In this document: one piece after another, positions 7,554 through 29,129 of the stretch
Numbering within the stretch: the stretch's first letter is position 1
How the letters are laid out: each line of letters opens with the position of its first letter
IMG/VR virus record: IMGVR_UViG_2737471841_000001
Location: 1 to 29,144 of that record
From: a virus
Lineage: Duplodnaviria; Heunggongvirae; Uroviricota; Caudoviricetes
Strand: one strand, 5' to 3'
Length of the DNA stretch: 29,144 bases
Notes under the pieces: generated by a model
The model's database searches: none
The model's input: only the letters and a program-made list of their open reading frames with translations
Told to the model about the DNA's origin: nothing
Made by a program: the position numbers and the translations under genes

Positions 7554-7726
7554 TAGCGATAATTTTACTCATCATCCTTCACATCTGGCTCTGTAGACAG
7601 GGTGGTGCTCACTTCTGGAGTGAATCCAGATTAAACATCTCATTGCTGATGCTTGATATTGAGCATTTTGCGCGCGGTAAGGGGCTGCGTTGAGATAAGA
7701 GCCAGTCATTACAAATACCAGGATTT

Positions 7727-7752
7727 AGCCTCGCATTTGCGGGGCTTTTTTA
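7727..7752 (+). terminator. Intrinsic terminator downstream of the lysis cassette
   Basis: 8-bp stem AGCCTCGC / GCGGGGCT (one G-U pair), 4-nt loop, then TTTTTTAT. Confidence 0.6.
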
Positions 7753-7898
7753 TATCTGCAACAAACGCGCTTCACACGCGCGACTTCTGAACACAGAACC
7801 TTTCAGGATGACCCTTGAGGATGCCGGTTTGGTGATCGGTGCCTTTCTGTGGGCCGGAATCCTGTGTGACAAGGTTCATCACTAAAAGGTAATCACTG

Positions 7899-8429: not shown

Positions 8430-8685
8430 TTTCGCAGGTTAATCCAGTTTTTGCATTACGGCAGTACCACGAAGCAACCCAAGCCAGTAAGTGGGGAAAT
8501 AACACTGGCAGCCACTGAAAGATGAACCTCCTGCCTTATGGCAAAAAAGATTCTTTGTGGTGGCGGACTGATGGAAAGACATCGGTTATTGCAGAGACCA
8601 TTCAATGAGTGGTCTCGACAATAGCTTATACCCTACACGGGATAACTTAACTGATATCCCTTTTAACGGATAAACGGAGCCAACA

Positions 8686-8928
8686 ATGGCAGAGATTATT
8701 CCCATGACTGAAGAACAGAAATTCCAGTTAGAGATTTACAAACTGGTCATGAACCAGAACGCAGCCGCAGAAGAAGCATTTCAGTTCATCGGCACTGACG
8801 AACTGAAGCTTGAGCTATTCAAAATTCACTTCCAGTCAGGCGGCGCTAATTCGGATATCACGATCCGCACATTCGAAGCGGTGCGTAAATCGAAGGAAGC
8901 GTTAGACCTGTTCACCACCGGAGCATGA
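8686..8928 (+). CDS. Hypothetical 80-aa protein upstream of small terminase
   Basis: Clean ORF with a GGAG-containing leader (acggataaacGGAGccaacaATG); no family recognised. Confidence 0.55.
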   Translation: MAEIIPMTEEQKFQLEIYKLVMNQNAAAEEAFQFIGTDELKLELFKIHFQSGGANSDITIRTFEAVRKSKEALDLFTTGA

Positions 8929-8957
8929 TGCTCAACCTGAAATAACGATTAAGTGAG

Positions 8958-9452
8958 ATGAATATGGCAGCACCAAAGGGCAACCGATTCTGGGAGGCCC
9001 GCAGTAGTCATGGGCGAAACCCTAAATTCGAATCGCCTGAGGCGCTGTGGGCTGCTTGTTGTGAATACTTCGAGTGGGCTGATGATAACCCGCTATGGGA
9101 GGGTAAGGTATTTTCATATCAGGGAGAAATAATTAAGGCTAATGTCCCTAAGATGCGAGCCATGACTATTTCAGGATTGTGTACCTTCCTTGATATCACC
9201 AGGCAAACATGGGGAACCTTCCGGTCAATGGAAGGTTTTTCTGACGTCACATCACGAGCGGAAGACATCATCTACGACCAGAAATTCTCTGGCGCAGCCG
9301 CTGACCTTCTCAACGCTAACATCATCGCCCGTGATTTGGGCCTCAAAGAGCAGTCGCAAGTTGAAGACGTGACACCTGATAAGGGAGATCGCGATAAGCG
9401 ACGCTCTCGTATCAAGGAGCTATTCAACCGTGGAACTGGACGCGATTCTTGA
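8958..9452 (+). CDS. 3: Terminase small subunit (P22 gp3-like)
   Basis: ~162-164 aa, [23 protein letters not shown]-terminus; immediately upstream of and overlapping the large terminase. Confidence 0.85.
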
Positions 9453-10929
9453 TAACCTGAGCGACGAAGAGCAAATCGAGTTGCTCGAGCTACTCGAAGA
9501 AGAAGAGAACTACCGGAACACACACCTGCTATATGAATTTACGCCATACAGCAAACAGCGTGAGTTCATCGACGCCGGACATGACTACCCAGAGCGATGT
9601 TTTATGGCTGGTAACCAGCTTGGTAAGTCATTTACTGGTGCTGCTGAAGTCGCGTTTCACCTTACAGGGCGTTATCCGGGCACAAAAGGCTATCCTGCTG
9701 ATGGTAAATATGGCGGTGAGTGGAAAGGTAAGCGTTTCTATGAGCCTGTTGTCTTCTGGATTGGTGGCGAGACAAACGAGACTGTAACCAAAACGACTCA
9801 ACGCATCCTGTGCGGTCGTATCGAAGAGAATGATGAGCCTGGCTACGGTTCCATACCGAAAGAAGACATCATTAGCTGGAAGAAGTCTCCTTTCTTTCCG
9901 AACCTTGTTGATCATCTTCTGGTTAAGCATCACACGGCTGATGGCGTTGAAGATGGCATTTCAATCTGCTACTTCAAGCCATACTCGCAAGGCCGTGCTC
10001 GCTGGCAGGGTGACACAATCCACGGCGTGTGGTTTGACGAAGAGCCACCATACAGCATTTATGGCGAAGGTCTTACCCGTACCAACAAATACGGGCAATT
10101 CTCAATTCTGACGTTTACCCCGCTGATGGGGATGTCTGACGTTGTTACCAAGTTCCTGAAGAATCCAAGCAAGTCGCAGAAAGTGGTCAACATGACCATC
10201 TACGACGCTGAGCACTACACAGACGAACAGAAAGAGCAAATCATCGCATCTTATCCTGAGCATGAGAGAGAGGCGCGTGCTCGCGGTATTCCTACGATGG
10301 GTAGCGGTCGAATCTTCCAGATACCGGAAGAGACGATTAAGTGCCAGCCGTTCGAGTGTCCTGATCACTTCTACGTAATTGGCGGGATGGATTTCGGATG
10401 GGATCACCCACAGGCGCAGGTTCAGCTTTGGTGGGATAAGGACGCAGACACAATCTACGTTTCACGCGTGTGGAAGGCGAAAGAAAAAACAGCCGTTCAG
10501 GCGTGGGGAGCTGTTAAATCATGGGCGCATAAAGTGCCAACCGCATGGCCTCATGACGGAAACCAGCACGAGAAGGGCGGCGGTGAGCAGCTCAAAGGGC
10601 AGTATGCGGACGCTGGATTTATGATGTTGCAGGAGCATGCGACATGGCCTGATGGCGGTAATGCTGTTGAGCCTGGAATCACTGAATTGCGCGACATGAT
10701 GCTTGATGGTCGCTTCAAAGTATTCAACACCTGTGAGCCATTCTTTGAGGAGTTCCGCCTCTATCACCGTGATGAAAACGGGAAGATCGTCAAGCTTAAC
10801 GACGACGTTCTCTCAGCCGTTCGCTATGCATACATGATGCGCCGCTTCGCCAAAATGATGCGCGACATCAAAAAACCAAAAGAGAAAAAGATACCAGCCC
10901 CAATCAGGCCCATCGCACGGAGAACTTAA
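9430..10929 (+). CDS. 2: Terminase large subunit (P22 gp2-like)
   Basis: 499 aa, GTG start overlapping terS; Walker A-like GNQLGKS; acidic N-terminus (LELLEEEE); position before portal. Confidence 0.9.
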
Positions 10930-13095
10930 ATGGCCGACGAAAACAGACTCAATTCCATTCTGTGTAAGTTTGACGCGGACTGGATGGCGAGCGATGAAGC
11001 CAGAACCGAGGCGACAAATGACCTGTATTTTAGCCGAGTGTCGCAATGGGATGACTGGCTATCAAACTACACGACCCTGCAATATCGCGGACAATTCGAT
11101 GTTGTTCGCCCGGTGGTCAGAAAACTGGTCGCAGAGATGCGCCGGAACCCTATCGACGTTCTCTTCCGACCCAAAGACGGCGCTAATCCTGATGCAGCCG
11201 ATGTATTGATGGGGATGTATCGTACTGATATGCGCCATAACACGGCAAAGATTGCCGTTAACGTTGGCGTTCGTGAGCAGATAGAGTCAGGCGTTGGTGC
11301 ATGGCGTCTGGTCACGCAGTACGAAGACAACGATCCAACAAGCAACAATCAGGTAATCCGACGCCTGCCAATCCATGAAGCCTGCTCACACGTCATATGG
11401 GACGCCAACAGCAAGCAGATGGATAAGAGCGACGCTAAGCACTGCACGGTGATTAACGCTTTGTCACGCAATGGCTGGAAAGAGTTCGCAGAGGATTACG
11501 GTATTGATCCGGACACCTTGCCATCTTTCCAGAATCCGAACGATACATGGCTGTTTCCGTGGGTATCGAATGATGTCGTCTACGTCGCTGAGTATTACGA
11601 GGTCGAAGAGAAGAAAGAGAAAGTCTTCATCTACCGCGACCCGCTGACAGGTGAGCCGGTCAGCTATTACCAGCAGGATATCAAAGACGTCATCGACGAC
11701 CTGGCTAATCGTGGATTCATTAAGGTAGCAGAGCGCAAGGTGAAGCGTCGGCGTGTGTATAAGTCGATCATCACCTGCACGCAGATACTGAAAGACCGCG
11801 AGAAGATAGCCGGAGAGCATATTCCAATCGTTCCAGTGTATGGAGAATGGTCATTCGCTGGTGACAAGGAGTGCTACGAAGGAGTGGTAAGGCTGACGAA
11901 AGACGGTCAGCGCCTTCGTAACATGATCATGTCATTCAACGCCGATATTGTTGCTCGTTCACCGAAGAAGAAACCGACCTTCTTCCCTGAGCAAATCGAA
12001 GGCTACGAATACATGTACGGTGGAAATGATGACTATCCGTACTATCTGCAGAACAAGACCGATGAAAACGGTAACGACCTGCCTATTGGTCCAATCTCCT
12101 ACATGGAAAACCCTGAAGTGCCGCAAGCCAACGCTTACATGCTTGAGGCTGCCACCAACGCAGTGAAAGAGGTGGCTAGTCTTGGCGTGGATGCGCAGGC
12201 GGCAAATGGCCAGGTCGCTTTCGATACCGTCAATCAACTGAACATGCGGGCAGACCTTGAGACATACGTGTTTCAGGATAACCTGGCTACCGCAATGCGA
12301 CGTGATGGCGAGATTTATGCCTCAATGGTCAACGATATTTATGACGTTCCTCGCCATGTAACGCTGACACTTGAAGATGGAAGCGAGAAAGACGTTCAAC
12401 TCTATGCGCAAGTTGTAGATTACCAGTCTGGCAATGTGGTCACACTCAACGACATTCGCGGTCGCTATGAGTGCTATACAGACGTCGGACCATCCTTCCA
12501 GAGCATGAAGGAACAGAATCGCGCAGAGATTCAGGAGTTGCTAACCAAGGTTCCGCAAGGTACTCCAGAGTTCCAGATGCTGATGCTGCAATACTTCACG
12601 CTGCTTGACGGTAAAGGCGTCGAGATGATGCGAGAGTACGCGAACAAGCAACTGGTGATGATGGGGCTGAAGAAACCAGAAACACCTGAAGAGATGGAGA
12701 TGGTACAGCAGGCACAACAACAGCCGCAGCAGCCATCAGCAGAGCAAATTCAGGCGCAGGGTATCCTTCTGCAAGGTCAGGCTGAATTGCTCAAGGCAGA
12801 GAACCAACAGGCGCAGATTCAGGTTGAAGCCGCCAAGGTTGAAGCCCAAAACCAACTCAACGCCGCGAAGATTGCAGAAATCTTCAACAATATGGACCTC
12901 GACAAGCAGGCAGAACTGCGTGAGTACCTCAAGCTCGTAGGTCAATTCCAGCAACAGCGCAGCAAAGATGCTCGTGCTAACGCTGAGCTGCTTCTTAAAG
13001 ATGCAGACCAGACTCATTCACAACGCATGGATTTCGCGAATCTTATGCGTCAAGTTCAAATCCCCTCCGGCGGAGTAGCCGAGACACCTCAATAA
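10930..13095 (+). CDS. 1: Portal protein (P22 gp1-like)
   Basis: 721 aa; matches my recollection of P22 portal ([33 protein letters not shown]; Gln/Ala-rich C-terminal barrel). Confidence 0.95.
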
Positions 13096-13108
13096 GAGAG
13101 AGTTAATC

Positions 13109-14020
13109 ATGGACCAAACCACCGACATTCAGGCTTCTGAAGAATTAACCCTGCCCGGCAATCATGCAGCGGCATCTGCTGATGGCTTAGTTGTCGATAA
13201 TGCCAACGACAACGCAGGTCAGGAAGAAGGCTTCGAGATTGTCCTGAAAGACGATGAGAAACCAAAACAAGACCCGGCAACTAATGCTGAATTTGCCCGT
13301 CGCCGCATCGAACGCAAACGCCAGCGTGAGCTTGAGCAACAGATGGAAGCGGTTAAGCGGGGAGAGTTGCCGGAGCACCTGCGGGTGAACCCTGAGTTAC
13401 CAAAACAACCAGACCCTAACGATTATCTTTCCGAAGACGCACTGGCTAAGTACGACTATGACCAGAGCCGCGCACTGGCTGCCTTCCAGCAGGCAAACAG
13501 TGAATGGCAGATCAAGGCTATGGATGCACGAAGCCAGGCTGTCGCCGAGCAGGGTCGCAAAACTCAGGAGTTCACCCAGCAATCAGCGCAATACGTCGAG
13601 GCAGCCCGTAAGCACTACGACGCAGCGGAAAAGCTCAATATCCCTGACTATCAGGAGAAAGAGGATGCATTCATGCAACTGGTGCCGTCAGCAGTCGGTG
13701 CCGACATTATGCGCCTCTTCCCGGAGAAATCCGCTGCTCTCATGTATCACCTTGGTGCTAATCCTGAGAAAACACGCCAGTTGCTGGCGATGGACGGGCA
13801 ATCCGCGCTGATTGAACTCACTCGACTGTCAGAACGTTTAACTCTCAAGCCTCGAGCCAAACCTGTTTCAGAAGCCCCGCTACCTGATGAACCCATTCAG
13901 GGACACGCTGTTGCTGCAAATATATCTGCGATTGAAAAGCAGATGGAAGCGGCAGCAAACAAAGGGGATGTAGAGACGTACCGCAAGCTTAAGGCGCAAC
14001 TGAATAAAGGAATTCGATAA
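13109..14020 (+). CDS. 8: Scaffolding protein (P22 gp8-like)
   Basis: 303 aa, charged/helical, C-terminal [13 protein letters not shown] coat-binding-like region; between portal and coat. Confidence 0.9.
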
Positions 14021-15315
14021 TGGCATTAAATGAAGGTCAACTGGTCACGTATGCTCTGGATGAAATCATCGAAACCGTCCAGAACCTGACGCCAATGGCG
14101 TCCAAAGTGACAAAATACACCCCTCCGGCAGAATCCATGCAGCGTTCAAGCAACACCGTGTGGATGCCTGTTGAGCAGGAAGCGCCAACCCAGACTGGCT
14201 GGGATTTAACTGGCAACGCAACCGGGATTCTGGAACTCTCCGTGAAGTGCAACATGGGCGATCCGGATAACGATTTCTTCGAGCTTCGTGCAGATGACCT
14301 GCGTGATGAGCGTTCTTACCGTCGCCGCATCCAGGCATCCGCCAAAAAACTGGCGAATAACATTGAGTCAGCGATTGCCAAACAGGCAACTGAAATGGGC
14401 TCGCTTGTTGTTCACGATACCCGCGCAATTGGTCCATCTACTGGCCTGTCTGGCTGGGATTTTGTGTCTGATGCAGAGCGCCTGATGTTCTCCCGTGAGC
14501 TAAACCGCGATATGGGCATCAGTTACTTCCTGAACCCTGACGATTACCGCAAAGCAGGCCGCAACCTGGTAGATGGTGACATCTTCGGTCGCGTTCCTGA
14601 AGAAGCGTATCGCAACGGTACTATTCAGCGTCAGATTGCTGGCTTTGATGAAATTCTTCGCTCACCGAAACTTCCGGCAGTTACCAAGTCAACCGCTACT
14701 GGTGTAACTGTTTCTGGTGCGCAGAAGTTTAAGCCGCAGGCATACACTCTTGATACCGATGGTAACAAAGAGAACGTCGACAACCGTGTTGCAACGGTGA
14801 CCGTATCCTCCACCACCGGATTTAAGCGCGGCGACAAAATCAGTTTCACTGGTGTGAAATTCCTGTCTCAGATGGCGAAGAACGTGCTGACTGATGACGC
14901 GACTTTCTCAATCACCCGTGTGATCGATGGTACTCACATCGAAATCACGCCGAAACCGATTGCACTGGATGACGCGTCACTGACAAAAGAAGAGAAGGCT
15001 TACGCTAACGTAAACACCTCTCTTGCTGATACCACTCCGGTAAACGTTCTGAACGTGGCAACAACCACCGCTAACGTGTTCTGGGCTGATGACTCAATCC
15101 GTCTGCTGTCTCAGCCGATCCCGGTAACCCATGAACTGTTTGCTGGCATGAAAACGTCTTCCTTCAGCATTCCAGGCATTGGTGTTAACGGCATCTTCGC
15201 AACGCAGGGTGATATCAACACTCTGTCTGGTAAGTGCCGTATTGCTGTGTGGTATTCAGCATGTGCTGTACGACCAGAGGCAATTGGTGTTGGTCTGCCT
15301 AACCAGACTGCGTGA
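14020..15315 (+). CDS. 5: Major coat protein (P22 gp5-like)
   Basis: 431 aa, [21 protein letters not shown] ... [11 protein letters not shown]; size and order match P22 coat (about 430 aa from memory). Confidence 0.95.
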
Positions 15316-15322
15316 TAACCAG

Positions 15323-15347
15323 AGGGAGCTTCGGCTCCCTTTTTTAT
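15323..15347 (+). terminator. Intrinsic terminator after coat gene
   Basis: AGGGAGC-TTCG-GCTCCCT stem-loop followed by TTTTTTAT, 8 nt after the coat stop. Confidence 0.7.
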
Positions 15348-15359
15348 CTGGAGACAAGC

Positions 15360-15596
15360 ATGACACACATGATCTTTCGTCATGGCGACATGAAGAAATG
15401 GAAAGGCGTTGGCTACGACTTTGAAATCGTGAAAGCCGAAGAGCTTCAGGAATATCTGGATGCTGGCTGGTTTTCACATCCTGATGACCTTTTGAAGGAT
15501 GTTGCAGAGCCAGAGCCAGAGCCAGAAGAAAAACAGCGTAAAAAGCCTGGTCGAAAACCTAAGGCGGCAGCAGATGAACCTGACAACGAAGGGTGA
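15360..15596 (+). CDS. Hypothetical small acidic protein (overlaps gp4 start)
   Basis: 78 aa from ATG 15360 just after the terminator; C-terminus [28 protein letters not shown]; overlaps the gp4 start by 23 nt in another frame. Confidence 0.4.
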
Positions 15597-16074
15597 TTTA
15601 GTCCTTGCGGCATTACGTAAGCTCGGTGTGGCATCAAATGCCACGTTAACAGATGTCGAACCGCAGTCTATGGAAGACGGCGTCAACGACCTTGAAATGA
15701 TGATGGCTGAATGGCTTGGCGGTGATGCGTCACCTGGTATCAACGTTGGCTACATTTTTGCTGATGCAGATGTCGCTCCGGATCCGGGCGATGAGCACGG
15801 TTTATCAAATAACGCTATCAATGCCGTCATTTTTAACCTTGCCTGCCGCATTGCTCCAGATTATGCGCTGGAAGCGTCAGCAAAACTTATAACCACTGCC
15901 AGATACGGGAAAGAGCGACTCGTCAAACTGTCTGCAATGGACAGAGCAAAAGCCGCTAAATGTAAGTCCGGTTATCCAAACCGTATGCCTGTTGGTAGCG
16001 GTAACCAGTTGGCGAAGTGGAATGGTTGGAATTACTTCCACCGAAAGGAACCTTGCGATAACGGGAGCGAATAA
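15574..16074 (+). CDS. 4: Head completion / tail accessory factor (P22 gp4-like)
   Basis: 166 aa from ATG 15574 ([33 protein letters not shown]). The ORF track start at 15499 is probably run-in. Confidence 0.85.
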
Positions 16075-16179
16075 ATGCCTATTCAGCAACTTCCGCTTAT
16101 GAAAGGTGTCGGCAAAGACTTCCGAAACGCCGACTATATCGACTATCTGCCAGTGAATATGCTGGCAATTTTGATATAA
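16075..16179 (+). pseudogene. Orphan 5' fragment of gp10 (34 codons), displaced by the HNH gene insertion
   Basis: Starts 1 nt after gp4 stop; MPIQQLPLMKGVGKDFRNADYIDYLPVNMLA then ILI-stop; same N-terminus reappears in diverged form at 16748. Confidence 0.65.
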
Positions 16180-16215
16180 TAAGTACATGAAAAATCGAAA
16201 CTTTAAGGAGTAGAT

Positions 16216-16800
16216 ATGCTTTCTGAGAATGCTAAAGATATACCTGGATTTGAAGGTGTTTATGCCGTAACAGAAGATGGCAGGGTGTATTCTCACTCAC
16301 GTGTTGTTAAGGCTGCGCATGGCAGCACGCAACTCAGAAAGGGGCGCTGGTTAAAGCCTAAAATAAATCAGGGAAGGGTGCTTTATAATATCGGAGCAAA
16401 ATGGACTTTTGCCCATCGAATCGTTGCAATGACATTCCTGCCAAATCCTGAAAACAAGCCTCAGGTAAATCATATTGATGGCAATCCACTCAATAATAAC
16501 GTCAATAATCTTGAGTGGTGCACTCAAAGCGAAAACATCAAACATGCATACGCCACCGGATTAAAGAAACCAATCAAGTTTTTCGGAACCAAGCACCCAA
16601 AACACAAGTTGAGTGATGACGATGTTCTTGCAATCAAGTCATCAAAAGAAAGCTTGTCAGTAATTGCGGCTAAGTACGGGATATCTAAGACCTGGGCAAG
16701 TAGGCTAAAGCGTGATGCTAACTGGGTTCATATAAAGGTTGATTCCAATGGCAATACAACAACTACCACTAATGAAGGGATTGGGGAAAAGTGCGGTTAA
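16216..16800 (+). CDS. Free-standing HNH homing endonuclease (NUMOD4-like N-terminus, HNH core, C-terminal HTH)
   Basis: 194 aa; GFEGVYAVTEDGRVYSH, HRIVAMTF ... VNHIDGNPLNNNVNNLEWCTQSEN (HNH), LSVIAAKYGISKTWASRLKR (HTH). 3' end overlaps the gp10 start. Confidence 0.85.
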   Translation: MLSENAKDIPGFEGVYAVTEDGRVYSHSRVVKAAHGSTQLRKGRWLKPKINQGRVLYNIGAKWTFAHRIVAMTFLPNPENKPQVNHIDGNPLNNNVNNLEWCTQSENIKHAYATGLKKPIKFFGTKHPKHKLSDDDVLAIKSSKESLSVIAAKYGISKTWASRLKRDANWVHIKVDSNGNTTTTTNEGIGEKCG

Positions 16801-18166
16801 TGCTGATTATATAGACCAACTTCCAGTCAATCTTTTAGCTACGTCTAAGGAGGTGTTGAATTCATCGGGATATCTTCGCTCATTCCCGGGCATTGCCAAA
16901 CGTTCTGATGTGAACGGTGTATCGCGCGGCGTCGAGTACAACATGGCGCAGAGTGCTGTTTATCGAGTGTGTGGTAGCAAGTTGTATAAGGGCGAAAGTG
17001 AGGTCGGTGATGTTGCCGGAAGTGGTCGCGTATCAATGGCGCATGGTCGGACATCACAGGCGGTAGGCGTTAATGGTCAACTGGTCGAGTATCGCTATGA
17101 TGGCACGGTTAAAACCGTCTCAAACTGGCCTGCAGACAGTGGATTTACTCAGTATGAGTTAGGTTCAGTCCGCGACATTACGCGCTTACGTGGGCGTTAT
17201 GCGTGGTCAAAAGACGGCACGGATTCATGGTTTATCACTGACCTTGAAGACGAATCGCATCCTGACCGTTACAGCGCACAATATCGCGCAGAATCGCAGC
17301 CGGACGGTATCCTCGGCATCGGAACATGGCGAGACTTCATCGTCTGCTTTGGTTCATCGACGATTGAATATTTTTCCCTGACTGGGGCAACTACCGTTGG
17401 TGCCGCTTTGTATGTCGCACAGCCATCACTGATGGTGCAGAAAGGCATTGCCGGAACTTACTGCAAAACGCCGTTTGCTGATTCCTATGCGTTTATCAGC
17501 AATCCGGCAACAGGTGCTCCGTCTGTATACATCATCGGCTCCGGTCAGGTATCACCAATCGCCAGCGCGAGCATTGAGAAAATCCTCCGCTCCTACACTG
17601 CTGATGAACTGGCTGATGGTGTGATGGAATCGTTGCGGTTTGATGCTCATGAGTTGCTGATTATCCATCTTTCGCGTCACGTCCTTGTGTACGACGCATC
17701 TTCAAGCGCCAATGGTCCGCAATGGTGTGTGCTGAAAACAGGCCTGTATGACGATGTGTACCGCGCTATCGACTTCATTTACGAAGGCAATCAGATAACG
17801 TGCGGCGATAAGCTGGAGTCCGTGACCGGGGAATTGCAGTTCGATATATCTTCACAATACGAAAAACAACAAGAGCATATTTTATATTCCCCTCTAATAA
17901 AGGCTGATAACGTTTTAATAAATGACCTTGAATTAGAAACATCTGGCGGCGTGTGTGATAGAATAGATAGAATATTTATATCAGCCACTACAGATGGAAT
18001 TAATTACGGTCGTGAGCAAATGGTTGTATTACAAAAACCATTTGTATATGACAATCGCGTTTTATGGCGAAAGGTTGGTCGAGTTAGACGCCTCATTGGA
18101 TTTAAATTCAGAGTTATTGCAAAAGGTCCTGTCACATTATCAGGCCTTTCTATTCGTGTAACATAA
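16748..18166 (+). CDS. 10: Tail hub / tail accessory protein (P22 gp10-like)
   Basis: 472 aa from ATG 16748 (MAIQQLPLMKGLGK...); the track start at 16739 is TTG. Position and length match P22 gp10. Confidence 0.9.
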   Translation: MAIQQLPLMKGLGKSAVNADYIDQLPVNLLATSKEVLNSSGYLRSFPGIAKRSDVNGVSRGVEYNMAQSAVYRVCGSKLYKGESEVGDVAGSGRVSMAHGRTSQAVGVNGQLVEYRYDGTVKTVSNWPADSGFTQYELGSVRDITRLRGRYAWSKDGTDSWFITDLEDESHPDRYSAQYRAESQPDGILGIGTWRDFIVCFGSSTIEYFSLTGATTVGAALYVAQPSLMVQKGIAGTYCKTPFADSYAFISNPATGAPSVYIIGSGQVSPIASASIEKILRSYTADELADGVMESLRFDAHELLIIHLSRHVLVYDASSSANGPQWCVLKTGLYDDVYRAIDFIYEGNQITCGDKLESVTGELQFDISSQYEKQQEHILYSPLIKADNVLINDLELETSGGVCDRIDRIFISATTDGINYGREQMVVLQKPFVYDNRVLWRKVGRVRRLIGFKFRVIAKGPVTLSGLSIRVT

Positions 18167-18187
18167 ATCGAAACTTAAGGAGTAGAT

Positions 18188-18721
18188 ATGTTAAGTGAAA
18201 ACGCAAAAGATATCGAAGGATATGAAGGACTGTACGCCATCACTAATGATGGTAGAGTTTACTCGCATTCAAGAGTAAATTTGAGGGGACGTCTTATTAA
18301 GGGGAGGTGGCTGAAGCATAATCATAACGTAAATGGATATAAGTATGTGTGTTTATATAAGGATGGCGTAAAAAAGAACATACTAATACATAAGCTTGTT
18401 GCATCTCACTTTGTTGGTGGATTTGCTGAAGGGTTACAGGTTAACCATATAGATGGTGATAAATATAATAATAACTATCTAAATCTTGAATGGGTTACTC
18501 CATCAGGAAATATCTCACACTCATATGGATTGGAATCGCGAGGTAATGTTAAAGGAGAAAGGAATGGTAATTCTAAAATATCTAATGATGATGTCATAAA
18601 GATAAAAGAAATGGTTGCCAATGGATTTCCTCAGTGTGAAGTTGCTAAATTATTTGGAATTCACAATTCAAAGGTTAGTAGAATTGTAAATGGCAAGGCA
18701 TGGAGGCATGTGAATGGCTGA
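18188..18721 (+). CDS. Free-standing HNH homing endonuclease (paralog of 16216..16800)
   Basis: 177 aa; N-terminus [30 protein letters not shown] nearly identical to the first HNH protein; HKLVASHF ... [20 protein letters not shown]; C-terminal HTH; AT-rich. Confidence 0.85.
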
Positions 18722-19562
18722 TTCGAATCTCAATGAGCCGGTAACAATTCAGGCTGCGCGCCTTGATGCTTCAATTTTGCCACGCAATATATTCAGCCAG
18801 TCTTACCTGCTGTATGTCATAAATCAGGGTGCTGATGTTGGCGCAATTGCCGGGAAGGCAAATCAGGCTGGTCAGGGCGCTTATGACGCACAAGTCAGGA
18901 ACGATGAGCAGGATGTGATTCTCGCTGACCATGAGCAGCGAATTTCTGCTGCGGAAGCAACGCTTGTTAATCATGAGGAGAGAATCAGCCAGGCAGAATC
19001 AACTCTTCAGGAACATGAAACGCGAATCGCTCAGAATGAAAGCGATATTGCGTCGCTTGATACCAGAGTTCAGTCGCTGGAGTCGCAGGTTTCAGACCAT
19101 GAATCGCGCATCGATGCTCTGGAGTATGCCACTACTCGCAAGAAGTCAGAGGTTGTTTACTCTGGCGTATCAGTAACCATCCCGACAGCGCCGACCAACC
19201 TTGTTAGCCTGCTGAAAACGCTCACGCCGTCATCCGGCTCGTTGGCACCATTCTTCGACACCGTTAACAACAAGATGGTTGTGTTCAACGAGAACAAAAC
19301 CTTGTTCTTCAAGCTGTCGATTGTCGGGACGTGGCCCAGCGGAACCGCCAACAGGTCAATGCAGCTAACATTTTCCGGTTCTGTTCCTGACACACTGGTA
19401 AGCAGTCGCAACTCGGCGACAACAACCGATAACATCTTGTTAGCTACGTTCTTCAGCGTGGATAAAGACGGCTTTCTTGCCACAAATGGCAGCACGTTAA
19501 CCATTCAGTCAAATGGTGCGGCGTTTACTGCCACAACCATCAAAATAATTGCGGAGCAGTGA
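18714..19562 (+). CDS. 26: Tail needle (P22 gp26 family) with coiled-coil repeats and a distinct C-terminal domain
   Basis: 282 aa; N-terminal ~60 aa resembles gp26 ([41 protein letters not shown]); tandem ~14-residue HE-RI repeats; C-terminal ~140 aa unrelated to P22 gp26. Confidence 0.85.
18931..19120 (+). repeat. Imperfect ~42-nt tandem repeats encoding the tail-needle coiled coil
   Basis: Repeated units beginning CATGAGCAGCGAATT / CATGAGGAGAGAATC / CATGAAACGCGAATC / CATGAATCGCGCATC, i.e. HEQRIS / HEERIS / HETRIA / HESRID. Confidence 0.6.
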
Positions 19563-20041
19563 TGGAAATAAAGCTCATCGATAATCCGGTGAAGCTTGCA
19601 GAATTCCTCAACAACCCGGCAAACACGGGAAATATCGTAGACAGTGGAGACAAATACTACATCAAGCCTGATGCGGTATACCTCGGCATCTACGAAGGAC
19701 TGATGCTGGTCGGAGTGCATGAAGTGCGTAACTTCTGGCATAGCGTTGTTGAATGCCATGCGGTGTACGACCCCGGATTCCGTGGCGAATATGCACTGCA
19801 AGGGCATCGATTATTCTGCAAATGGCTTCTCGAAAACTCACCATTCCTTAACAGCATCACTATGGTTCCTGACACCACGAAATACGGACGGTCAATTATC
19901 CGTTTGCTTGGCGCTACCCGTGTTGGTCACCTTGATGATGCTTATACCAGCAATGGAAAGCCTGTAGGCATCACGATTTATCAGTTACCGCGCTCAAAAT
20001 ACGAGGAGCTAACGAATGTTAATTTTCCAGATTGCCAATAA
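19562..20041 (+). CDS. 14: Tail/head assembly protein (P22 gp14-like)
   Basis: [40 protein letters not shown] resembles P22 gp14; ATG 19562 overlaps the needle stop. Confidence 0.8.
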   Translation: MEIKLIDNPVKLAEFLNNPANTGNIVDSGDKYYIKPDAVYLGIYEGLMLVGVHEVRNFWHSVVECHAVYDPGFRGEYALQGHRLFCKWLLENSPFLNSITMVPDTTKYGRSIIRLLGATRVGHLDDAYTSNGKPVGITIYQLPRSKYEELTNVNFPDCQ

Positions 20042-20690
20042 GCACCTCAGCAAAGCTGTTTACTGCAAAGGCGGCAGTGATGGCGGTTCAAAAGCCCAGG
20101 CACGCGCAACTGAAAAGGGTATCGAATTGCAGCGTGAAATGTGGCAAACGAACATGCAAAACCTCGCACCGTTCACACCACTCGCTCAACAGTACGTATC
20201 AGAGTTGCAGAATCTTTCCTCTCTTCAGGGGCAAGGTCAGGCGCTTAACCAGTATTACAACTCCCAGCAGTACAAAGACCTTGCTGGTCAGGCGCGTTAC
20301 CAGAGTCTGGCAGCAGCAGAGGCAACGGGTGGATTAGGCTCTACAGCAACAGGAAACCAGTTAGCATCAATCGCACCTACACTCGGTCAAAACTGGCTGT
20401 CAGGTCAGATGAACAACTACAACAATCTGGCAAACATTGGCCTTGGTGCTCTTACAGGTCAGGCAAACGCCGGGCAGAACTACGCTAACAACGTCAGCCA
20501 ATTGTATCAACAGCAGGCGGCAGCATCTGCGGCGAATGCTAACCGACCATCAGGATTGCAATCAGCTTTGGGCGGTGCCATGAGCGGTGCGGCATCAGGG
20601 GCGATGATTGGCTCTGTGGTGCCAGGAATAGGTACGGCTGTTGGCGCTATTGGTGGCGGCATTATCGGTGGTCTTGGATCATTGTTTTAA
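20016..20690 (+). CDS. 7: Ejection (internal virion) protein, gp7-like
   Basis: 224 aa, Gln/Asn/Gly-rich with Gly-rich hydrophobic C-terminus (GSVVPGIGTAVGAIGGGIIGGLGSLF); AGGAG SD; order after gp14. Confidence 0.8.
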   Translation: MLIFQIANKHLSKAVYCKGGSDGGSKAQARATEKGIELQREMWQTNMQNLAPFTPLAQQYVSELQNLSSLQGQGQALNQYYNSQQYKDLAGQARYQSLAAAEATGGLGSTATGNQLASIAPTLGQNWLSGQMNNYNNLANIGLGALTGQANAGQNYANNVSQLYQQQAAASAANANRPSGLQSALGGAMSGAASGAMIGSVVPGIGTAVGAIGGGIIGGLGSLF

Positions 20691-20699
20691 GGTGGGAAT

Positions 20700-22172
20700 A
20701 TGGCTACTTGGCAACAAGGAATCAACTCAGGCGGTTTTCTTGCTGGTATCGGTGGGCAAAACTCAAATGCGCCAAAGGCAAGTGATGTAAGTGAGGCGTT
20801 GGCCTATATTCGCCAGAACAACGAAATGGAGCGTTCAGGTCGCAATAACATCGGCCTTCAGGCGTTGCAGGGACTTGGTAGTGTCGCTCAAACATATAAA
20901 GCCGCAAAGCAACAGGAAGCGGATGCTGCATTCCAAAAAGAATATGCGGTAGCCATCCAGTCAGGTGATCGACAGCAGGTGCGAGATCTGATGACCAAAT
21001 ATCCTCGTCAATTAGAGAAGATTCAGTCTGGTATGAAGTGGGCAGACGAAGACCAACGCAATTCTATAGGCACCTTAGCGGCTGGCGCACGCCTTGCGGC
21101 CTCGTCTCCAGAAGCAATGCAATCATGGCTGCAAAACAACGCCAAGGAACTGACTCGCGTCGGTGTTGACCCTAACAGCGTTGCTCAGATGTATCAGCAG
21201 AACCCTTCAGGATTTGGTGAGTTTGTTGATCACCTTGGAATGGCTGCTCTTGGTCCAATTGATTACTTCAATGTTCAGGACAAGATGGCTGGTCGTGAGA
21301 TTGATCGCGGGAAACTTGCAGAGACAATCCGCAGCAATCAGGCTGGAGAAGCACTTCAGGCGAGAGGGCAGGATATTAGCCGAGCAAATGCGTTAACGTC
21401 AGCATATGCACCAACAGCCGCAATGCAGAATTACAATCAGTACGCGCAAATGTTAAAGGCGGATCCAGATGGTGCAGCGGCATTTGCGGCAGCGGCGGGA
21501 ATTAATCCCAATGCTAAGAAATTACTTAAGGTTGAAACCAATCCTGATGGCTCGGTAACTAAGTATTACACCGATGGCAGCGAGGAAGCCGGAAAACTAA
21601 ACCAACCTATATCTGGTGATGGCATTAAACCAATTAGCTTGCCACAAGCGCAAAGCATCATAGATAAGGCTAATGAGGGTTCCAAGAAGGCGGCAGGATT
21701 TGCTTTGCGATTAAAAGATTCAATGGACTCAATGAATCAGCTTAGTAAAAGCATTGACCCTAAGCGAGTTGCATTAATAAATCGCTCTCTTGGTGATGGG
21801 ACTATTGCAAATTTAAGCCTATCACCAGCGGAGCAGCAATATATGGTAAATGCGAGAGACGCATTGTATGCAATTTTGCGCCCAGAAACAGGTGCAGCAA
21901 TTACTCTGCCAGAGATGCAGGAGTATTCCAAAATGTACCTGCCTCAGCCCGGTGATTCCAAGGCTGCTACTGAAACAAAAATGCGAAAAATGCAGGGCCA
22001 ATATAACTCATTACGTGGTCAGTCTGGTCGCGTTTATGATGCTTTGGTGGTTTCAAGTGCTGCAAATAGTCAACAACAGAGCAATAGCCAACAACCGACA
22101 AATACCCAACAGCAGCAGAGTCAATCCGGATCATATACCTCAAAATCAGGCATTCAATTTACGGTGGAATGA
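20700..22172 (+). CDS. 20: Ejection protein, gp20-like
   Basis: 490 aa, position and composition consistent with P22 gp20. Confidence 0.8.
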
Positions 22173-24301
22173 TGAAAGTAACTGCAAACGGTAAGACATT
22201 TACCTTCCCTGATGGTACGAGCACGGAAGATATTGGCACCGCCATTGATGAGTATTTTGCTGGTCAGGCTGTTCAGCAACAAACAGTTAATCAGGCCAAT
22301 AATGAACCAGCACGTGAAGAACTATCATTGATGCAACAAGCTGGCGATTGGCTCACAGGTGGTCAAAGTGCAGGGCAAATTGCAGAGCAGGCTGGTCGCG
22401 GTCTGGTAAACATACCATTTGACGTATTGCAGGGTGGCGCAAGTCTGATTAATGCAATCAGCCAAGGGCTTGGTGGCCCCAAGGTTTTGGATGATGTTTA
22501 TCGCCCTGTCGATCGACCGACAGACCCTTACGCGCAAGCCGGTGAAACAATTGGTGGGTATCTCCTGCCAATTGGCACAGCGGCAAAAGCTGCTGGAGCG
22601 CCAGCAAAGCTCGCTGTAGATATCGGTTCCGCAGGAAACATGATTGCAGGTTCTCTTGCTGATGCTGCAAATCAGGAGGGCGACTTTGCACAAAATGCTG
22701 CCATTAACGGTGGTATCAATATTGGTGCTCAAGGCGTTCTTTCTGGTGTCGGGCGCGTTATTGCGCCAAGGGTCTCACAGGCTCTTGGTGGTGCAGCACT
22801 GAATTCTGCTAATGATGTTTCCAGGATGGCAAAGTCAGGTGCTGGGCGTCAGTCAATTGCCAGTCAGGCCGCTAATGTGTCCGAAGATGTAGCAAAAGCG
22901 GCTGAGTCTGCTGGAATTGATATAAACGCATTAACACCAGGAATGCGATCTGGAAGTCGTGGAATTGCACAAGCCGAAGGCGCATTGGCATCAACACCAG
23001 GAATTGTTCAGGACGCCCATCAGGCAGCATTTAACGAAATATCATCAAAGTTAAGTCGAAACCTTGATGAATTTGGGGCCGCATCTGGAACGGCATCAGA
23101 AAAAAGTGCGGCTATAAAACAAAGGATTCTTCAAAATCTTGATCAGATGAAGGATGCCGAGCGCGCGGCATGGGATGACGTGCGGTCAACAATGCCAAAT
23201 CAAAAAGCAAGAATGCTAAATGGTAATGCTGTTATTCAGGCAGAGCGATCTGCTGGCATACCGCTTACTCCTGAAATGAAACAGTTTGTTCAGGCAAACA
23301 ATCAAGGTGGAGTAACATTTGATGGCATGAAAGCATGGAGAGCGAAATTTGCTGATGCGGAGCAAAAATATAAGCGTAGCGGAGAGGCAAATGCGGCAAG
23401 GAGAGCAGGGGAAATACGCCGGGCAATTACTGATGATATGCGCACAATGGCGGAAAACGGCGGATTTCTTGATGGCTGGCAGAAAGCTAATGATCTGTCT
23501 AAAGCGAGGTTATCAGCACAAGAGGGTGCAGAGTCTGTTTTCGGGCGTGATTTGGCAACAGATGCACTGATTACGAATGGAGTAAAATCCCTTCAATCAT
23601 CTTCAGCTAAAGGTCTTAATGGTCCTGCTGGATTCCATTCTATGATCCGCGCTCTGCCAGTATCAGAGCGTGTTCCTGCTATATCATCAATGCTGCAAGA
23701 TGCTATCTCGCATGGTGTCCGTGGTGGCAAATCTGATGCTGCAGGAATTAACCATATCGCAGAGATACTCACGCCACAAAATGTAAAAGCCATTAGCCGA
23801 TATTCCTCAGAGCTTGGAAGAATTGCTGATGCATATGGCACTCTTGCAAGAGCAGCAGTGAAACCTCAGCAGTATATTGAAAGAACAGGGAGAACTGCCA
23901 ATGTACTACGCGATCTTGATGCTGGTTTATCCAACGTTACATCAACAGTGTTAAATGCAATTGCCAACTCAACATCAGGTGCCATTGTTGGTGGAGCAGG
24001 AGGTGGGGGCGTTGCTGGCGCTGCCGCTGGCGCTTTAGTTGGCGCTGGGTTAAAAGGCGCTGTATCTAAAATTGCTACCACGCGTAGCGGTCGATATGCG
24101 ATAGAGAAAGCAGTTCAGGAAGCCACGAAAGCAGTAAGAGCTGGCGGAAGTAAAGAAGCATTAGCGGCGGCGGAACGCAGATTTATGGCAAATAAAGCCG
24201 CCGTAAAAGCAATACGAGATGCTATTGGTAGCGATGAATTCAATCGCTTGTCGAGAGCTGGTATTGTCGCCTCGTTAAGCGGTATGAATGAATATGAATA
24301 G
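22169..24301 (+). CDS. 16: Ejection protein, gp16-like
   Basis: 710 aa, Ala/Gly-rich; ATGA overlap with gp20; last gene of the rightward virion operon. Confidence 0.8.
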
Positions 24302-24303
24302 AT

Positions 24304-24789
24304 TTATCTAATGTTGCTGCTACTGTTGCATGTTACCGTGTTTCCAAATCCTGAATTGCAGTTTGTATATGTGTCAACGCGTGTTGGGTAAGGTTGAGTT
24401 ATAACAGGCTGGCGCGCTTTTTGCTCGATCGCTTGCATTGTGTTTACAGCCTGATAATTCAATAAAGCCTGCTGGAATGCTTGGCTTTGTGCTATTTGTT
24501 GGGCTTGTTCTTGGCTTTGTAATTGAACATAAAGATTCTGAAGCTCAAGTCTTGCCTGTGCGTCACTTATCTTGCCTTCATCGACACCTTGCCCGAGCAT
24601 CTTTGCAGCAAGGACATACAGCTTAGGTGTTGGTGCTGATGCCATGCGTGAGTCGTTCTTCACACTGGCATCAAGGCAATTAGCCATATCGCTAAGCTTT
24701 TGATAGCGTTGTTCGCAACTTGCTTGATAGTCACTTACTTTTGCGCATCCAACCAGCAGAAGCGGGATAATTAACAGTGATTTTTTCAT
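24304..24789 (-). CDS. Secreted lipoprotein of unknown function (candidate lysogeny-expressed moron)
   Basis: 161 aa from ATG 24789 (AAGGAG 9 nt upstream); signal peptide with lipobox MKKSLLIIPLLLVGC; four further Cys; Gln-rich helical middle. Confidence 0.7.
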   Translation of the reverse strand: MKKSLLIIPLLLVGCAKVSDYQASCEQRYQKLSDMANCLDASVKNDSRMASAPTPKLYVLAAKMLGQGVDEGKISDAQARLELQNLYVQLQSQEQAQQIAQSQAFQQALLNYQAVNTMQAIEQKARQPVITQPYPTRVDTYTNCNSGFGNTVTCNSSSNIR

Positions 24790-24859
24790 ATGGTTAACTC
24801 TCCTTAGTTTTTCACAGGATATCATGAAAGCAATGCCATTTTAGCCGGAAACTAGATTT

Positions 24860-25159
24860 CTATGTTTCCTTTTTATTATTGCTATACATGGTCTTAAGCG
24901 TTTCAAAAACCATTTTCTTAACCATATCAGATTGTTGTTCTGCCATACGCTCTGCATCGTCAATGTAAACTGATGCAGAGCTTTGTTTAGCCAATGATTC
25001 TTCAATCGCTGCAATTATCTCTGAGTTCAGCGACCTGTTATTCATCTTCGCGCGCTGTTTAATTTTCGCGTGGAGTTCATGCGGAAGTCTCAAGTGAAAC
25101 TGCGCCTCGTCGTATTTGCTGTACATCCTTGATGCCTCACCAGTTGGGTGGAATGGCAT
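24860..25159 (-). CDS. mnt: Mnt-like ribbon-helix-helix (Arc/MetJ family) repressor
   Basis: RLPHELHAKIKQRAKMNNRSLNSEIIAAIEESL ... DDAERMAEQQSDMVKKMVFETLK resembles P22 Mnt; start may be the internal ATG at 25126. Confidence 0.8.
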   Translation of the reverse strand: MPFHPTGEASRMYSKYDEAQFHLRLPHELHAKIKQRAKMNNRSLNSEIIAAIEESLAKQSSASVYIDDAERMAEQQSDMVKKMVFETLKTMYSNNKKET

Positions 25160-25199: not shown

Positions 25200-25222
25200 A
25201 TGCAACCACATCATGGTTGCAT
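25200..25222. promoter_or_regulatory. 23-bp perfect palindrome, candidate operator between mnt and tailspike
   Basis: ATGCAACCA-CATCA-TGGTTGCAT (9-bp arms, 5-bp spacer) in the 88-bp divergent region, 26 bp upstream of the tailspike ATG. Confidence 0.4.
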
Positions 25223-25247
25223 CATATCATTCGTCTGGAGCAATGAA

Positions 25248-27305
25248 ATGTCAGATATCACCGCAAATGTTGTGGTAAGCATGCCTTCTCAACTCTTCAC
25301 TATGGCTCGTTCTTTTAAAGCGGTAGCCAATGGCGAAATTTATATCGGGAAAATTGACACTGACCCGGTAAATCCTGAAAACCGGATTCAGGTTTATGTA
25401 GAGAACGAAGACGGCTCTCACGTTCCTGTTTCGCAACCAATCATCATTAACGCTGCTGGTTACCCGGTATATAACGGACAGATTGCCAAGTTCGTAACTG
25501 TGCAAGGCCATTCTATGGCTGTTTATGATGCGTATGGTGCACAGCAATTCTATTTTCCTAATGTGCTGAAGTACGATCCTGATCAGTTAAGGCAGGAGCT
25601 GGCGGGGCCAAACGGCGTAGATCTGGTAAACGGAGCGGCAAAGCAGACTGATGTTAATAAGCTGAACATTCACACTAGTGGCTACGTCAATGTGCTTGAG
25701 TATATCCCTGAAAACCTGCATCAGTACCTTACAGACTTGGCTCAGTCACAAACGAACGCAGGGGACCTAATTTCCTATCTTAATGCAGCGTCAGCATACT
25801 GCGAAAAGAACCACAAAGACCTTGTATTTCCGTTCGGATATTACTTTGTATCAAACACCTTCATGTTACCTGCTGGGGTAAAGGTGATAGGTCTTGGCTA
25901 CCCGTACATCCTTGCTCTAACCCCATTTAACGCTTCAAATATTATTGTAAGTTGCGATAAAACAGGACAGCCAACTTATGATATGGATATGTTTCATATA
26001 AACGGTCCTGGCCCTAGCAACCTCGACATGGTGGGGTTGCGAGTCGGCGGATGTCGTAATAGCAAATTTTCAAGGATAATCGTTACCAGTTGCTTCTCTG
26101 CCGGGGTAGAGGTTTACCCAACAGTAGCAACATCAGGAGATGTTGAAAACCTACACCTTGACCATGTCTGGACCGTACTGTCTGGAGGGGTGCGCTTTAA
26201 AGCTAACGCCTCTATAGCTAGGGGCAATATCACGGATGCAACTGTATCAAACTGTCAATTAACGACTGGAGATGCAACCTTGTCCGGACCTCCAGCTATC
26301 ACTATTACAGGGGCGCCTGGCAGGCAGATATTCGGGATTGCTTTTAAACGGGTATTTACACAAACGACTGACCAGGACCATATAGTAGTAAATCCAAATG
26401 GTGGAAGCGTATTCCATAATACATTTAGTGATATAAGTGGTGAGTCATGGACTATTGCCGCAGGCGGTATTTCTGGCTCATTCGCTAAGAATGCGCTATA
26501 TGTACTCGATGGTGCATTTACCACCAATTCATTCCGCGACTTCTATAAACAGGGTTTGCCTGGCAACGGTATTACTTTAGGTGTTGGCTCATCTGGTAAT
26601 CTGTTTGACGGGCTTCGATTCATGGACAGAAATGTTGTTGGATATAACAACAAGTGGTTAATCATACCATCTGGAGCAAACTCAAACAGTTTTCACGCCT
26701 GCTACTTCGATGGTTGTTTTAATCGCGCCGATTCTGGATATGGTGGCGTAGCGGCTAATTATGTATTCAGAGCTTTTGACGGTAAGATTTCTGACTTGAG
26801 CGGTAGCACAAAATTTGACACACCGGAGATAAGAGACGTTTCTCCAGTTCTCATTAAGAGGTCAACGATATTCGCTATTAGTGGCAACCAATTAGTTAAC
26901 TATCCAGTAACGGGATGCGCCTTTGCAACGACTGCCGATGGCATTAGCGTTGCCGTCCCTGCTGGTAACACCCCCTACTTTCTTACCATACCTTTTACCC
27001 CCACTGCGGGATTCGCAGGTAAATTTATCGGACTTACTATCAAATATGTATGCGGGGCCATGAATGGTATGACCCTGTCGGCGGATATCTGCGGCGCAGG
27101 TTCCGGAGTAACAGATTTAACCACGGGTAAAGCAAATGTGTTTAGCATGTATGGCGCTTACAACTCAGATAACAAAACCGTCACATTAACATTTGGGGGG
27201 GACAGAACGGCGCAGGCTAACATGGCTTTACAAGATATTATAATCACCGAAGGTGCTAACATTCCTTACATACCAAACTTCCGAAAAATATACATTGAGA
27301 GTTAA
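25248..27305 (+). CDS. 9: Tailspike (P22 gp9-like head-binding N-terminus, divergent receptor-binding domain)
   Basis: ATG 25248 with GGAG 9 nt upstream; [11 protein letters not shown]...[21 protein letters not shown]...[13 protein letters not shown]...VLKYDPDQ matches the gp9 head-binding domain; remainder differs from P22 gp9. Confidence 0.9.
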
Positions 27306-27810: not shown

Positions 27811-28968
27811 TTATGCCACCATCCCATCAAGCCAGTCCGCCCACCATTGCATCATCTCCCTGCGCTTATCGAGATACTGAGCATGGTTGTAAATCCCACG
27901 CACAGATCCGCCGTTGGCATGTGCCAGTTGCACTTCAATAGCGTCAGCAGGCCATTCGTGCTCGTTCATAATTGTGCTGAATTCATGCCTGAATCCGTGA
28001 CCGCTTTCCAGACCCTCATAGCCGATTTGTTTGATCACAAGCAATACCGCGTTCTCGCAGATTGGCTTCTTCTTATCGTTGCGCCCGGCAAAAACAAACT
28101 CTGACACTGGTTTAGTGATTGAGCTTAGCGTAGTGAGAAGTTCAACTACCTGGTCTGACATAGGAACCACATGAATTTTGCGTCCCTTCATCACATTGGC
28201 GTCGATGGTGATAATCCTGTTTTCAAAATCGACGTTCTTCCATAGCATGGAACGAAGCTCTTTTGTTCTGAGGGCTGTGTAGCGTAAAACTTTGGTCGCA
28301 ATGAGCGATACGATACTTCCTGAAAATGTTGCCAGTGCTTTATTGAATGCCGGGATCTGGTCTGCAGGCAGAAACGGGAAGTTCTTCTTGCGGTATCCCT
28401 TCATGGCGTCAGCAAGGTCAGGTGCCGGGTTATATTTAGCCCTACCAGTGACAATAGCGTAACGGAAAACCTCGCCGCATCTTCTGCGGGCTTTATTTGC
28501 TCGCTCCATTGCACCGCGATCTTCAAATCTGCGGATTACTTCCAGCAGTTGCATCGGCTCAATATCCTGAATCTCAAGACCGCCGATGATGGGTAAAATG
28601 TCGTCATCAAACATTTTTGCAAGTTCATTTGCATAGCCTACTGACCAGACTTGCTTCTTGTGCTCGTACCATTCCTTGTAAATGGCGCTAAAGGAATTGT
28701 TGTTAGACGAAGCCTTTTTCGCCTTTACCGGATCGATGCCAACCGAGATCTCTTTCCTCGCAGTCCATGCTTTATCCCTTGCCTCTTGCAAAGTCATAAG
28801 CGGATATTTTCCGACGGTCAGGATTTTCTCCTTACCGTCAATCTTGTATCGAAGCTGCCATACCTTTTTCCCTGATACAGGGACATAAAGGTACAGGCCA
28901 TTACCATCGAGTAGGCGGTATGGTTTTTCTTTCGGCTTTGCTGCTTCAATCTGCTTAACGGTGAGCAT
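27811..28968 (-). CDS. int: Tyrosine integrase (IntS / P4-like family with N-terminal arm-binding domain)
   Basis: 385 aa from ATG 28968 (MLTVKQIEAAKPKEKPYRLLDGNGLYLYVPVSGKK...), closely resembling E. coli IntS as I recall it; an in-frame GTG at 29004 is an alternative start. Confidence 0.9.
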   Translation of the reverse strand: MLTVKQIEAAKPKEKPYRLLDGNGLYLYVPVSGKKVWQLRYKIDGKEKILTVGKYPLMTLQEARDKAWTARKEISVGIDPVKAKKASSNNNSFSAIYKEWYEHKKQVWSVGYANELAKMFDDDILPIIGGLEIQDIEPMQLLEVIRRFEDRGAMERANKARRRCGEVFRYAIVTGRAKYNPAPDLADAMKGYRKKNFPFLPADQIPAFNKALATFSGSIVSLIATKVLRYTALRTKELRSMLWKNVDFENRIITIDANVMKGRKIHVVPMSDQVVELLTTLSSITKPVSEFVFAGRNDKKKPICENAVLLVIKQIGYEGLESGHGFRHEFSTIMNEHEWPADAIEVQLAHANGGSVRGIYNHAQYLDKRREMMQWWADWLDGMVA

Positions 28969-29129
28969 GGGTAAAAATCCGGTGGGTAAAATTATTTTAT
29001 CCACTTTTTACCCGTCATGGAGTGCGGCTGTCAACGATCTGACGCGAACCATGACGAACCGTGAATATACGGAAGGCTTGATATTCAGGGGATTTTGCGG
29101 ACTGGTACGGATGGTAGCGAACTGATAAA

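Follow-up and report, generated by a model that had tools for sequence, protein, structure and literature searches.

An open reading frame in the late region of a viral DNA sequence raises two connected questions: what kind of tail needle it encodes, and whether the repeats in its shaft allow the length of the needle to change. The window is the whole 29,144-nucleotide stretch of DNA that was analysed, and coordinates refer to it unless a relative is named. A first-pass annotation had described the product as a needle with a gp26-like N-terminus, a helical shaft built from tandem repeats and a C-terminal domain that replaces the P22 tip, with Sf6 and HK620 as models. We found that the ORF is real and that it encodes an Sf6-type tail needle knob protein, an already described part with nothing novel about it. 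Almost certainly, the gene specifies a trimeric tail needle that belongs to a temperate phage or prophage of E. coli or Shigella of the P22-like group (Lederbergvirus, Sf6-type).

The needle gene and its three parts

In the ORF list of the window, the needle ORF lies at 18714..19562 on the plus strand and encodes 282 aa, with exactly the limits given earlier. The gene and its parts are as follows.

18714..19562, plus strand: tail needle gene, homologue of Sf6 gene 9 and P22 gene 26; 282 codons and a TGA stop
18702..18706, plus strand: GGAGG, Shine-Dalgarno-like, 7 nt before the needle ATG, within the 3' end of the preceding HNH gene
18714..18899, plus strand: N-terminal plug domain that binds the tail hub (gp10), residues 1-62, assigned by matches to P22 gp26
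18900..18914, plus strand: NDEQD, the NxxQD polar core motif, residues 63-67; in the heptad register N is at a, Q at d and D at e
18900..19130, plus strand: coiled-coil shaft, residues 63-139, 11 heptads with an unbroken a/d register and a helix in the AF2 model
18927..19136, plus strand: five degenerate 42-nt (14-residue) units; the period is real, and the units are degenerate at the DNA level
19131..19559, plus strand: C-terminal knob, residues 140-282, a TNF-like jelly roll, assigned by 3RWN/4K6B, PF16532 and Foldseek

The GGAGG is a putative ribosome-binding site for the needle gene. It is contained in the upstream HNH ORF (18188..18721), whose 3' end overlaps the needle start so that the needle ATG lies 8 nt inside it. 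At the other end, the needle TGA shares one base with the ATG of the next gene, a homologue of P22 gene 14 (DUF2824). Three minus-strand ORFs within the needle gene (18771..18974, 19157..19504 and 19505..19807) had no support and were dropped as mechanical ORFs.

A phmmer search of the PDB sequences revealed that the N-terminal part of the needle was homologous to P22 gp26. The gp26 chains 4LIN, 4ZXQ, 4ZKP, 2POH and 3C9I aligned without gaps to residues 1-137/144 (E ~1e-44 to 1e-47), and the 62-residue gp26 fragment 8EAP_B matched residues 3-64 (E 2.5e-27), which bore out the gp26-like N-terminus of the first-pass annotation. Beyond residue 144, no P22 gp26 chain aligned in this search; the alignments ended at residues 137-144, and the C-terminus did not align to P22 gp26. 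Residues 130-282 matched the Sf6 gp9 knob (3RWN) with 151 of 153 residues identical (E 1.6e-90) and the HS1 knob (4K6B) with an E value of 4.8e-90. Additionally, PF16532 ('Sf6-type phage tail needle knob', Phage_tail_NK) covered residues 108-282 with 386 bits against a cut-off of 27 (E 2e-116). The proposal that the last ~140 residues replace the P22 tip therefore held, as about 143 residues match 3RWN, 4K6B and PF16532 and not P22 gp26. The combination of a plug domain, a coiled-coil shaft and a non-P22 knob is that of a knob-bearing, Sf6-like needle, as had been claimed.

At the nucleotide level, identity of the needle gene was 91% to Sf6 gene 9 and 92-93% to its counterparts in phages Louie, Kapi1 and N7; the Louie counterpart (93%) is annotated 'tail needle knob'. 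Matches to a 1.6-kb query (18100-19700), which ran from the end of the gp10-like gene through the HNH and needle genes to the start of the gp14-like gene, were found in 1223 of 5426 complete E. coli genomes. The needle homologues in E. coli prophages carry the PGAP name 'tail needle knob protein'.

The residues with known roles in related needles were also conserved. In the knobs of Sf6 and HS1, L-glutamate is bound by six residues (E146, K200, S248, D250, L255 and K277 in Sf6 numbering; PMC3741392), and all six are present in the window needle. The NDEQD residues were invariant across the relatives in both alignments that were made (A1 and A2). Since the NxxQD motif coordinates Ca2+ in P22 gp26 (PMC13580157), NDEQD is, by this precedent, a putative ion (Ca2+) site. 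From this motif onwards, the register runs unbroken through 11 heptads, position a being I/L/V and position d first alternating H/A and then N/L/L/H/L; an 11-heptad shaft has been published for Sf6 and P22 (PMC3741392).

The AF2 model, a monomer computed from alignment A2, revealed one uninterrupted helix from residue 42 to residue 140 (pLDDT 89-97) and, after it, a beta domain. When this model was searched with Foldseek, 3RWN and 4K6B ranked first (E ~4e-20), and TNF/C1q-type folds came next, so that the structure prediction, the C-terminal part included, agreed with a knob-bearing needle. Confidence in the knob part of the model was only moderate (mean pLDDT 73.9), as would be expected because the fold depends on the trimer and the alignment was shallow. 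The 99% sequence identity to the crystal structure 3RWN outweighs this mediocre knob model, which adds nothing beyond it. Homology, domain limits, heptad register, ligand residues and gene context were all observed for the window gene itself, and no evidence contradicted the needle identification. The gene can safely be named tail needle knob protein of an Sf6-like phage, and the finding otherwise matters little.

Genomic neighbourhood and the flanking HNH genes

The surroundings of the needle gene were compared with those in related phages. The relevant features of the window are as follows.

Upstream part of the late operon: terminase, portal, scaffold and coat genes
15499..16074: gp4-like gene
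16216..16800, plus strand: NUMOD4/HNH gene, 194 aa, with NUMOD4 and HNH_3 (Pfam)
16739..18166: gp10-like hub gene
18188..18721, plus strand: free-standing NUMOD4/HNH gene, 177 aa, with NUMOD4 and HNH_3, and also HTH (Pfam)
3' of the needle gene, in this order: gp14-like (DUF2824), gp7, gp20 and gp16-like genes
25200..27305: tailspike gene with a P22-type head-binding domain
27811..29004, minus strand: integrase gene

The needle gene sits between the gp10 and gp14 homologues, as it does in the family, but the 177-aa HNH gene separates it from the gp10-like gene. Sf6 and HK620 have the same gene order as the window without the HNH genes, and the HNH gene at 18188..18721 is lacking in these two phages and in most other relatives. 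Only 7 of the 5426 complete E. coli genomes had a place that covered at least 80% of the 1.6-kb query, and a NUMOD4 gene at the equivalent position was found in about 10 prophages among the matches listed. This gene is probably a homing endonuclease. The two HNH proteins of the window are 43% identical and have their first nine residues (MLSENAKDI) in common; the 3' end of the gene at 16216..16800 overlaps the start of the gp10-like ORF, and in E. coli K56-43-un an equal HNH pair flanks the gp10 gene.

The two HNH genes, inserted on both sides of the gp10-like gene, are one of the two observations that point to a decayed remnant in a defective prophage, from which no functional needle would be made. 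The other is that an Sf6-type needle gene is part of small P22-like remnants in more than 100 E. coli genomes (Leavitt et al., PMC3741392). However, the HNH genes are free-standing ORFs, and no structural ORF is interrupted. The needle ORF has its full length and retains all the knob and shaft residues that do not vary among the aligned relatives. The late operon of the window is apparently complete from the terminase through the tailspike, and an integrase gene is present as well. We therefore consider decay very unlikely and treat the ORF as an intact needle gene.

The window as a whole is a mosaic P22-like (Lederbergvirus-type) phage or prophage. The best phage records (APC_JM3.2, HZ41 and Louie) covered at most 56% of its first 25 kb (1..25000), and the matching parts were ~97% identical. 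A minus-strand ORF of 173 aa (24304..24825) was also observed between the gp16-like and tailspike genes. Pfam at E 1e-3 gave nothing for this ORF or for the 710-aa ORF at the gp16 position (22169..24301, plus strand). The E. coli E2863 counterpart of this 710-aa ORF bears the annotation of a lytic transglycosylase domain protein.

The shaft repeat and the length of the needle

The first-pass annotation described the shaft as built from ~42-nt tandem repeats. The period itself is statistically real. DNA identity at an offset of 42 nt was 47%, compared with 28% in codon-shuffled controls, and none of 2000 shuffles reached the observed value. A repeat search revealed four copies of a 23-nt core at spacings of 42, 42 and 84 nt with 65-74% identity. 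At the protein level, 24 of 56 residues were identical at an offset of 14, against 15.8 +/- 2.5 after shuffling within heptad positions, where 10 of 10000 shuffles reached the observed count. The period of 14 residues comes from the alternation of His and Ala at core position d; position a is occupied by I/L/V.

The units, on the other hand, are degenerate. Tandem Repeats Finder (TRF), run over 18500-19800 at a minimum score of 30, returned 0 rows, and a true DNA tandem repeat was rejected on this result. Compared pairwise, the five units (18927-19136) were identical at only 15-25 of 42 nt (36-60%), and the longest in-register exact matches were 7, 6 and 8 nt at offsets of 42, 84 and 168 nt, respectively. 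A recent DNA duplication in the window copy was also considered and rejected, as the codon-shuffle signal was fully explained under stricter resampling of synonymous codons. With the protein kept constant, this resampling gave 0.462 +/- 0.026 against 0.482 observed, and 1304 of 5000 resamplings (26%) equalled or exceeded the observed value. Because resampling yields equal periodicity, the protein repeat alone accounts for the periodicity of the DNA. The shaft repeat is thus an old, degenerate, protein-level motif of 14 residues (two heptads; HExRI) and not a series of near-identical DNA copies; the earlier description stands for the period and for the protein but not for the DNA. The window copy has the standard length of 11 heptads and bears no trace of recent DNA duplication.

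Among the relatives, the length of the shaft varies. In the best 120 cluster representatives, the spans from NDEQD to LEYA included 63, 77, 84, 91, 98, 105, 112, 126, 133 and 140 residues, which correspond to 9, 11, 12, 13, 14, 15, 16, 18, 19 and 20 heptads. Thus, 10 of the 13 distinct spans were multiples of seven residues (binomial p ~4e-6), and the other three were off-register singletons. In alignment A1, the length differences appeared as clean in-register blocks of 14 or 28 residues. Four variants were followed to the DNA.

P0024, 296 aa: exact 42-nt tandem duplication; longest exact run 48 nt
P0002, 310 aa: exact 84-nt duplication; longest exact run 95 nt
P0001, 338 aa: 84-nt unit triplicated; longest exact run 179 nt
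P0065, 268 aa: one 42-nt unit deleted; longest exact run not applicable

The 84-nt events were flanked by an 11-nt direct repeat, GACCATGAAAC, while the 42-nt duplication and the 42-nt deletion join shorter CATGAG words of 6-7 nt. Junctions at short direct repeats are a signature of slipped-strand or short-homology recombination, and needle lengths in this family differ through occasional in-register duplication or deletion between such repeats. Natural duplication, triplication and deletion variants of the shaft are found at loci L003 (1501-2517), L006 (720-1652), L005 (1501-2391) and L004 (1501-2307). The duplicated variants belong to rare clusters of 1-11 sequences, and the two large clusters, with needles of 282 and 317 aa, comprise 3620 and 1430 sequences, respectively. 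We also observed that the 300-residue PDB chain 4LIN matched the needle shaft in two stretches; this chain is presumably an engineered gp26 with a duplicated shaft segment, which the two-stretch match fits.

Short tandem duplications were also present inside the N-terminal plug domain of two relatives, P0016 (298 aa) and P0027 (288 aa), at A1 columns 45-74. The duplicated segments are the 16-aa QGTDVGNVANKANEAG and the 6-aa ANKANK, respectively, and they indicate that duplication at short repeats is not limited to the shaft.

These results bear on the earlier suggestion that the repeats could allow length variation by slippage. For the family it was upheld, as the relatives contain in-register indels of 14 or 28 residues and the duplications are exact copies at the DNA level. 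For the window it was not, as the in-register identity there extends over only 6-8 nt. A stronger reading would make the shaft a slippage-prone DNA tract, similar to a contingency locus, in which needle length changes at an appreciable frequency in the window phage. The range of 9-20 heptads with its multiples of seven, the exact 42- and 84-nt copies in P0024, P0002 and P0001, the deletion in P0065, and the GACCATGAAAC and CATGAG junctions would all fit such a tract. However, near-identical head-to-tail DNA copies were not found in the window, where TRF was blank, the units are 36-60% identical and no exact match exceeds 8 nt. The 11-nt repeat that is present in Sf6 is broken in the window copy by two mismatches (GAACATGAAAC versus GACCATGAATC). 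The DNA periodicity of the window shaft is not above what the protein demands, and duplicated variants are rare beside the clusters of 3620 and 1430 sequences. A slippage-prone tract in the window phage is, in our view, highly improbable; because its longest in-register exact match is 7-8 nt, the window copy is not slippage-prone, and it carries the baseline 11-heptad allele.

It was also considered whether the degenerate 14-residue repeat serves as a natural length-adjusting module. Rare 42- and 84-nt indels between repeats of 6-11 nt would then supply needles of 9-20 heptads, and selection might adapt the reach of the needle to a thicker or thinner host surface layer or to the geometry of the tailspike. 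We regard this as rather unlikely: the occurrence of shaft indels in relatives is shown, but that needle length is adaptive is pure speculation.

Natural variation between 11 and 16 heptads, including the 16-heptad needle of HS1, was already in print (PMC3741392), and the range of 9-20 heptads found here is wider. The catalogue of natural shaft-length variants with their DNA junctions is a modest addition, which may interest users of gp26 as an engineerable fibre or those who study needle length and DNA delivery.

Function of the knob and comparison with known needles

Trimer formation, plugging, expulsion and a kinetic role are taken over here from the published work on P22, Sf6 and HS1, and the needle of the window would be expected to act in the same way. 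Its N-terminal ~60 residues would insert into the gp10-type tail hub, by which the channel would be plugged and the packaged DNA kept in the head. In Sf6, the N-terminal helical hairpins of the needle are arranged with quasi-sixfold symmetry within gp8, and the needle plugs the hub channel (PMC9728967). Residues ~63-139 would form the trimeric coiled-coil shaft of 11 heptads, and the distal tip, residues 140-282, would be the Sf6-type TNF-like knob, in which three L-glutamate sites lie between the subunits. Upon infection, the needle would contact the outer membrane and be expelled, so that the ejection proteins and the DNA could pass through the opened channel. In agreement with such a sequence of events, the needle was described as contacting the cell surface early and as being gone before the ejection proteins build their conduit (PMC9400499, citing P22 cryo-ET). 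The tip domain would tune the rate of DNA delivery rather than the host range. Changes of the tip alter the kinetics of K+ efflux, from which it was suggested that the tip affects how fast the DNA is delivered or acts mechanically as a 'hole-punch' (PMC3741392).

The knob had also been suggested to act in cell-envelope recognition, and it could accordingly be a receptor-binding (host-range) domain that recognises a specific component of the outer membrane. It is the most distal part of the virion. The Foldseek list for the needle model continues after 3RWN with TNF, C1q and lectin folds, and Leavitt et al. describe the TNF-like fold as common to the receptor-binding knobs of adenovirus and PRD1 (PMC3741392). 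The same authors left a specific function in the infection of Shigella by Sf6 possible (PMC3741392). However, a chimeric P22 that bears the HS1 knob remains efficient at infecting Salmonella, needles with mutated glutamate sites and even needles tipped with foldon are functional, and tip changes alter only the kinetics of DNA delivery (PMC3741392). The knobs of P22-like phages diverge by no more than 4.9% despite the differing O-antigens of their hosts (PMC3741392), and the mutations that expand the host range of Sf6 all lie in the tailspike, which holds the OmpC-binding region (PMC9400499). A host-range function of the knob is thus unlikely. The chimera, mutant and tailspike data speak against the suggestion as it was worded, and it survives only weakly, in the sense of contact or triggering. 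A tip that tunes DNA delivery is the reading that we prefer.

We compared the window needle with the needles of Sf6, HS1, P22 and HK620. Sf6 gp9 (tail needle, 3RWN) is the closest of these: like the window needle, it has 282 aa, the three-part architecture, an 11-heptad shaft and the same residues in the glutamate site. Of its residues, 265 of 282 (94%) are identical to those of the window needle, and 11 of the 17 substitutions fall within residues 1-51 of the hub-binding domain. Some differences were present. Sf6 carries copies of the 11-nt GACCATGAAAC 84 nt apart, whereas these are degenerate in the window. Gene 9 of Sf6 directly follows gene 8, to which it is directly coupled, whereas in the window a NUMOD4/HNH gene lies in between; needle expression may differ from that in Sf6 because this gene is directly upstream and overlaps the needle start.

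The needle of the E. coli prophage HS1 has a nearly identical knob (4K6B, E 4.8e-90) and the same type of N-terminal domain. It differs in the length of the shaft, which has 16 heptads in HS1 (the 317-aa class) and 11 in the window (PMC3741392).

P22 gp26 (2POH, 3C9I and 4ZKP) resembles the window needle in its plug domain, NxxQD motif and 11-heptad shaft, with residues 1-137 aligned without gaps (E ~1e-44). Its tip (residues ~141-233), in contrast, has no counterpart in the window needle, which carries the TNF-like knob instead.

HK620 had been named beside Sf6 as a knob-bearing relative, and this was wrong. The N-terminal domain and the proximal shaft of HK620 gp26 (233 aa) are homologous to the window needle, with 54% identity over residues 1-148 and a one-heptad gap. 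The PDB chains 5BU5, 5BU8 and 5BVZ ('DNA stabilization protein') are, we assume, the HK620 needle. The alignment stops at residue 148; no homology to the P22-type tip (gp26 ~141-233) was found in the window needle, and HK620 was absent from the near-identical matches when tblastn was run with the knob. HK620 was therefore rejected as a knob-bearing relative, in agreement with Leavitt et al. (2013), where it is the type of subtype A of the P22-type tip (PMC3741392). Unlike the window needle, the needle of HK620 is knob-less.
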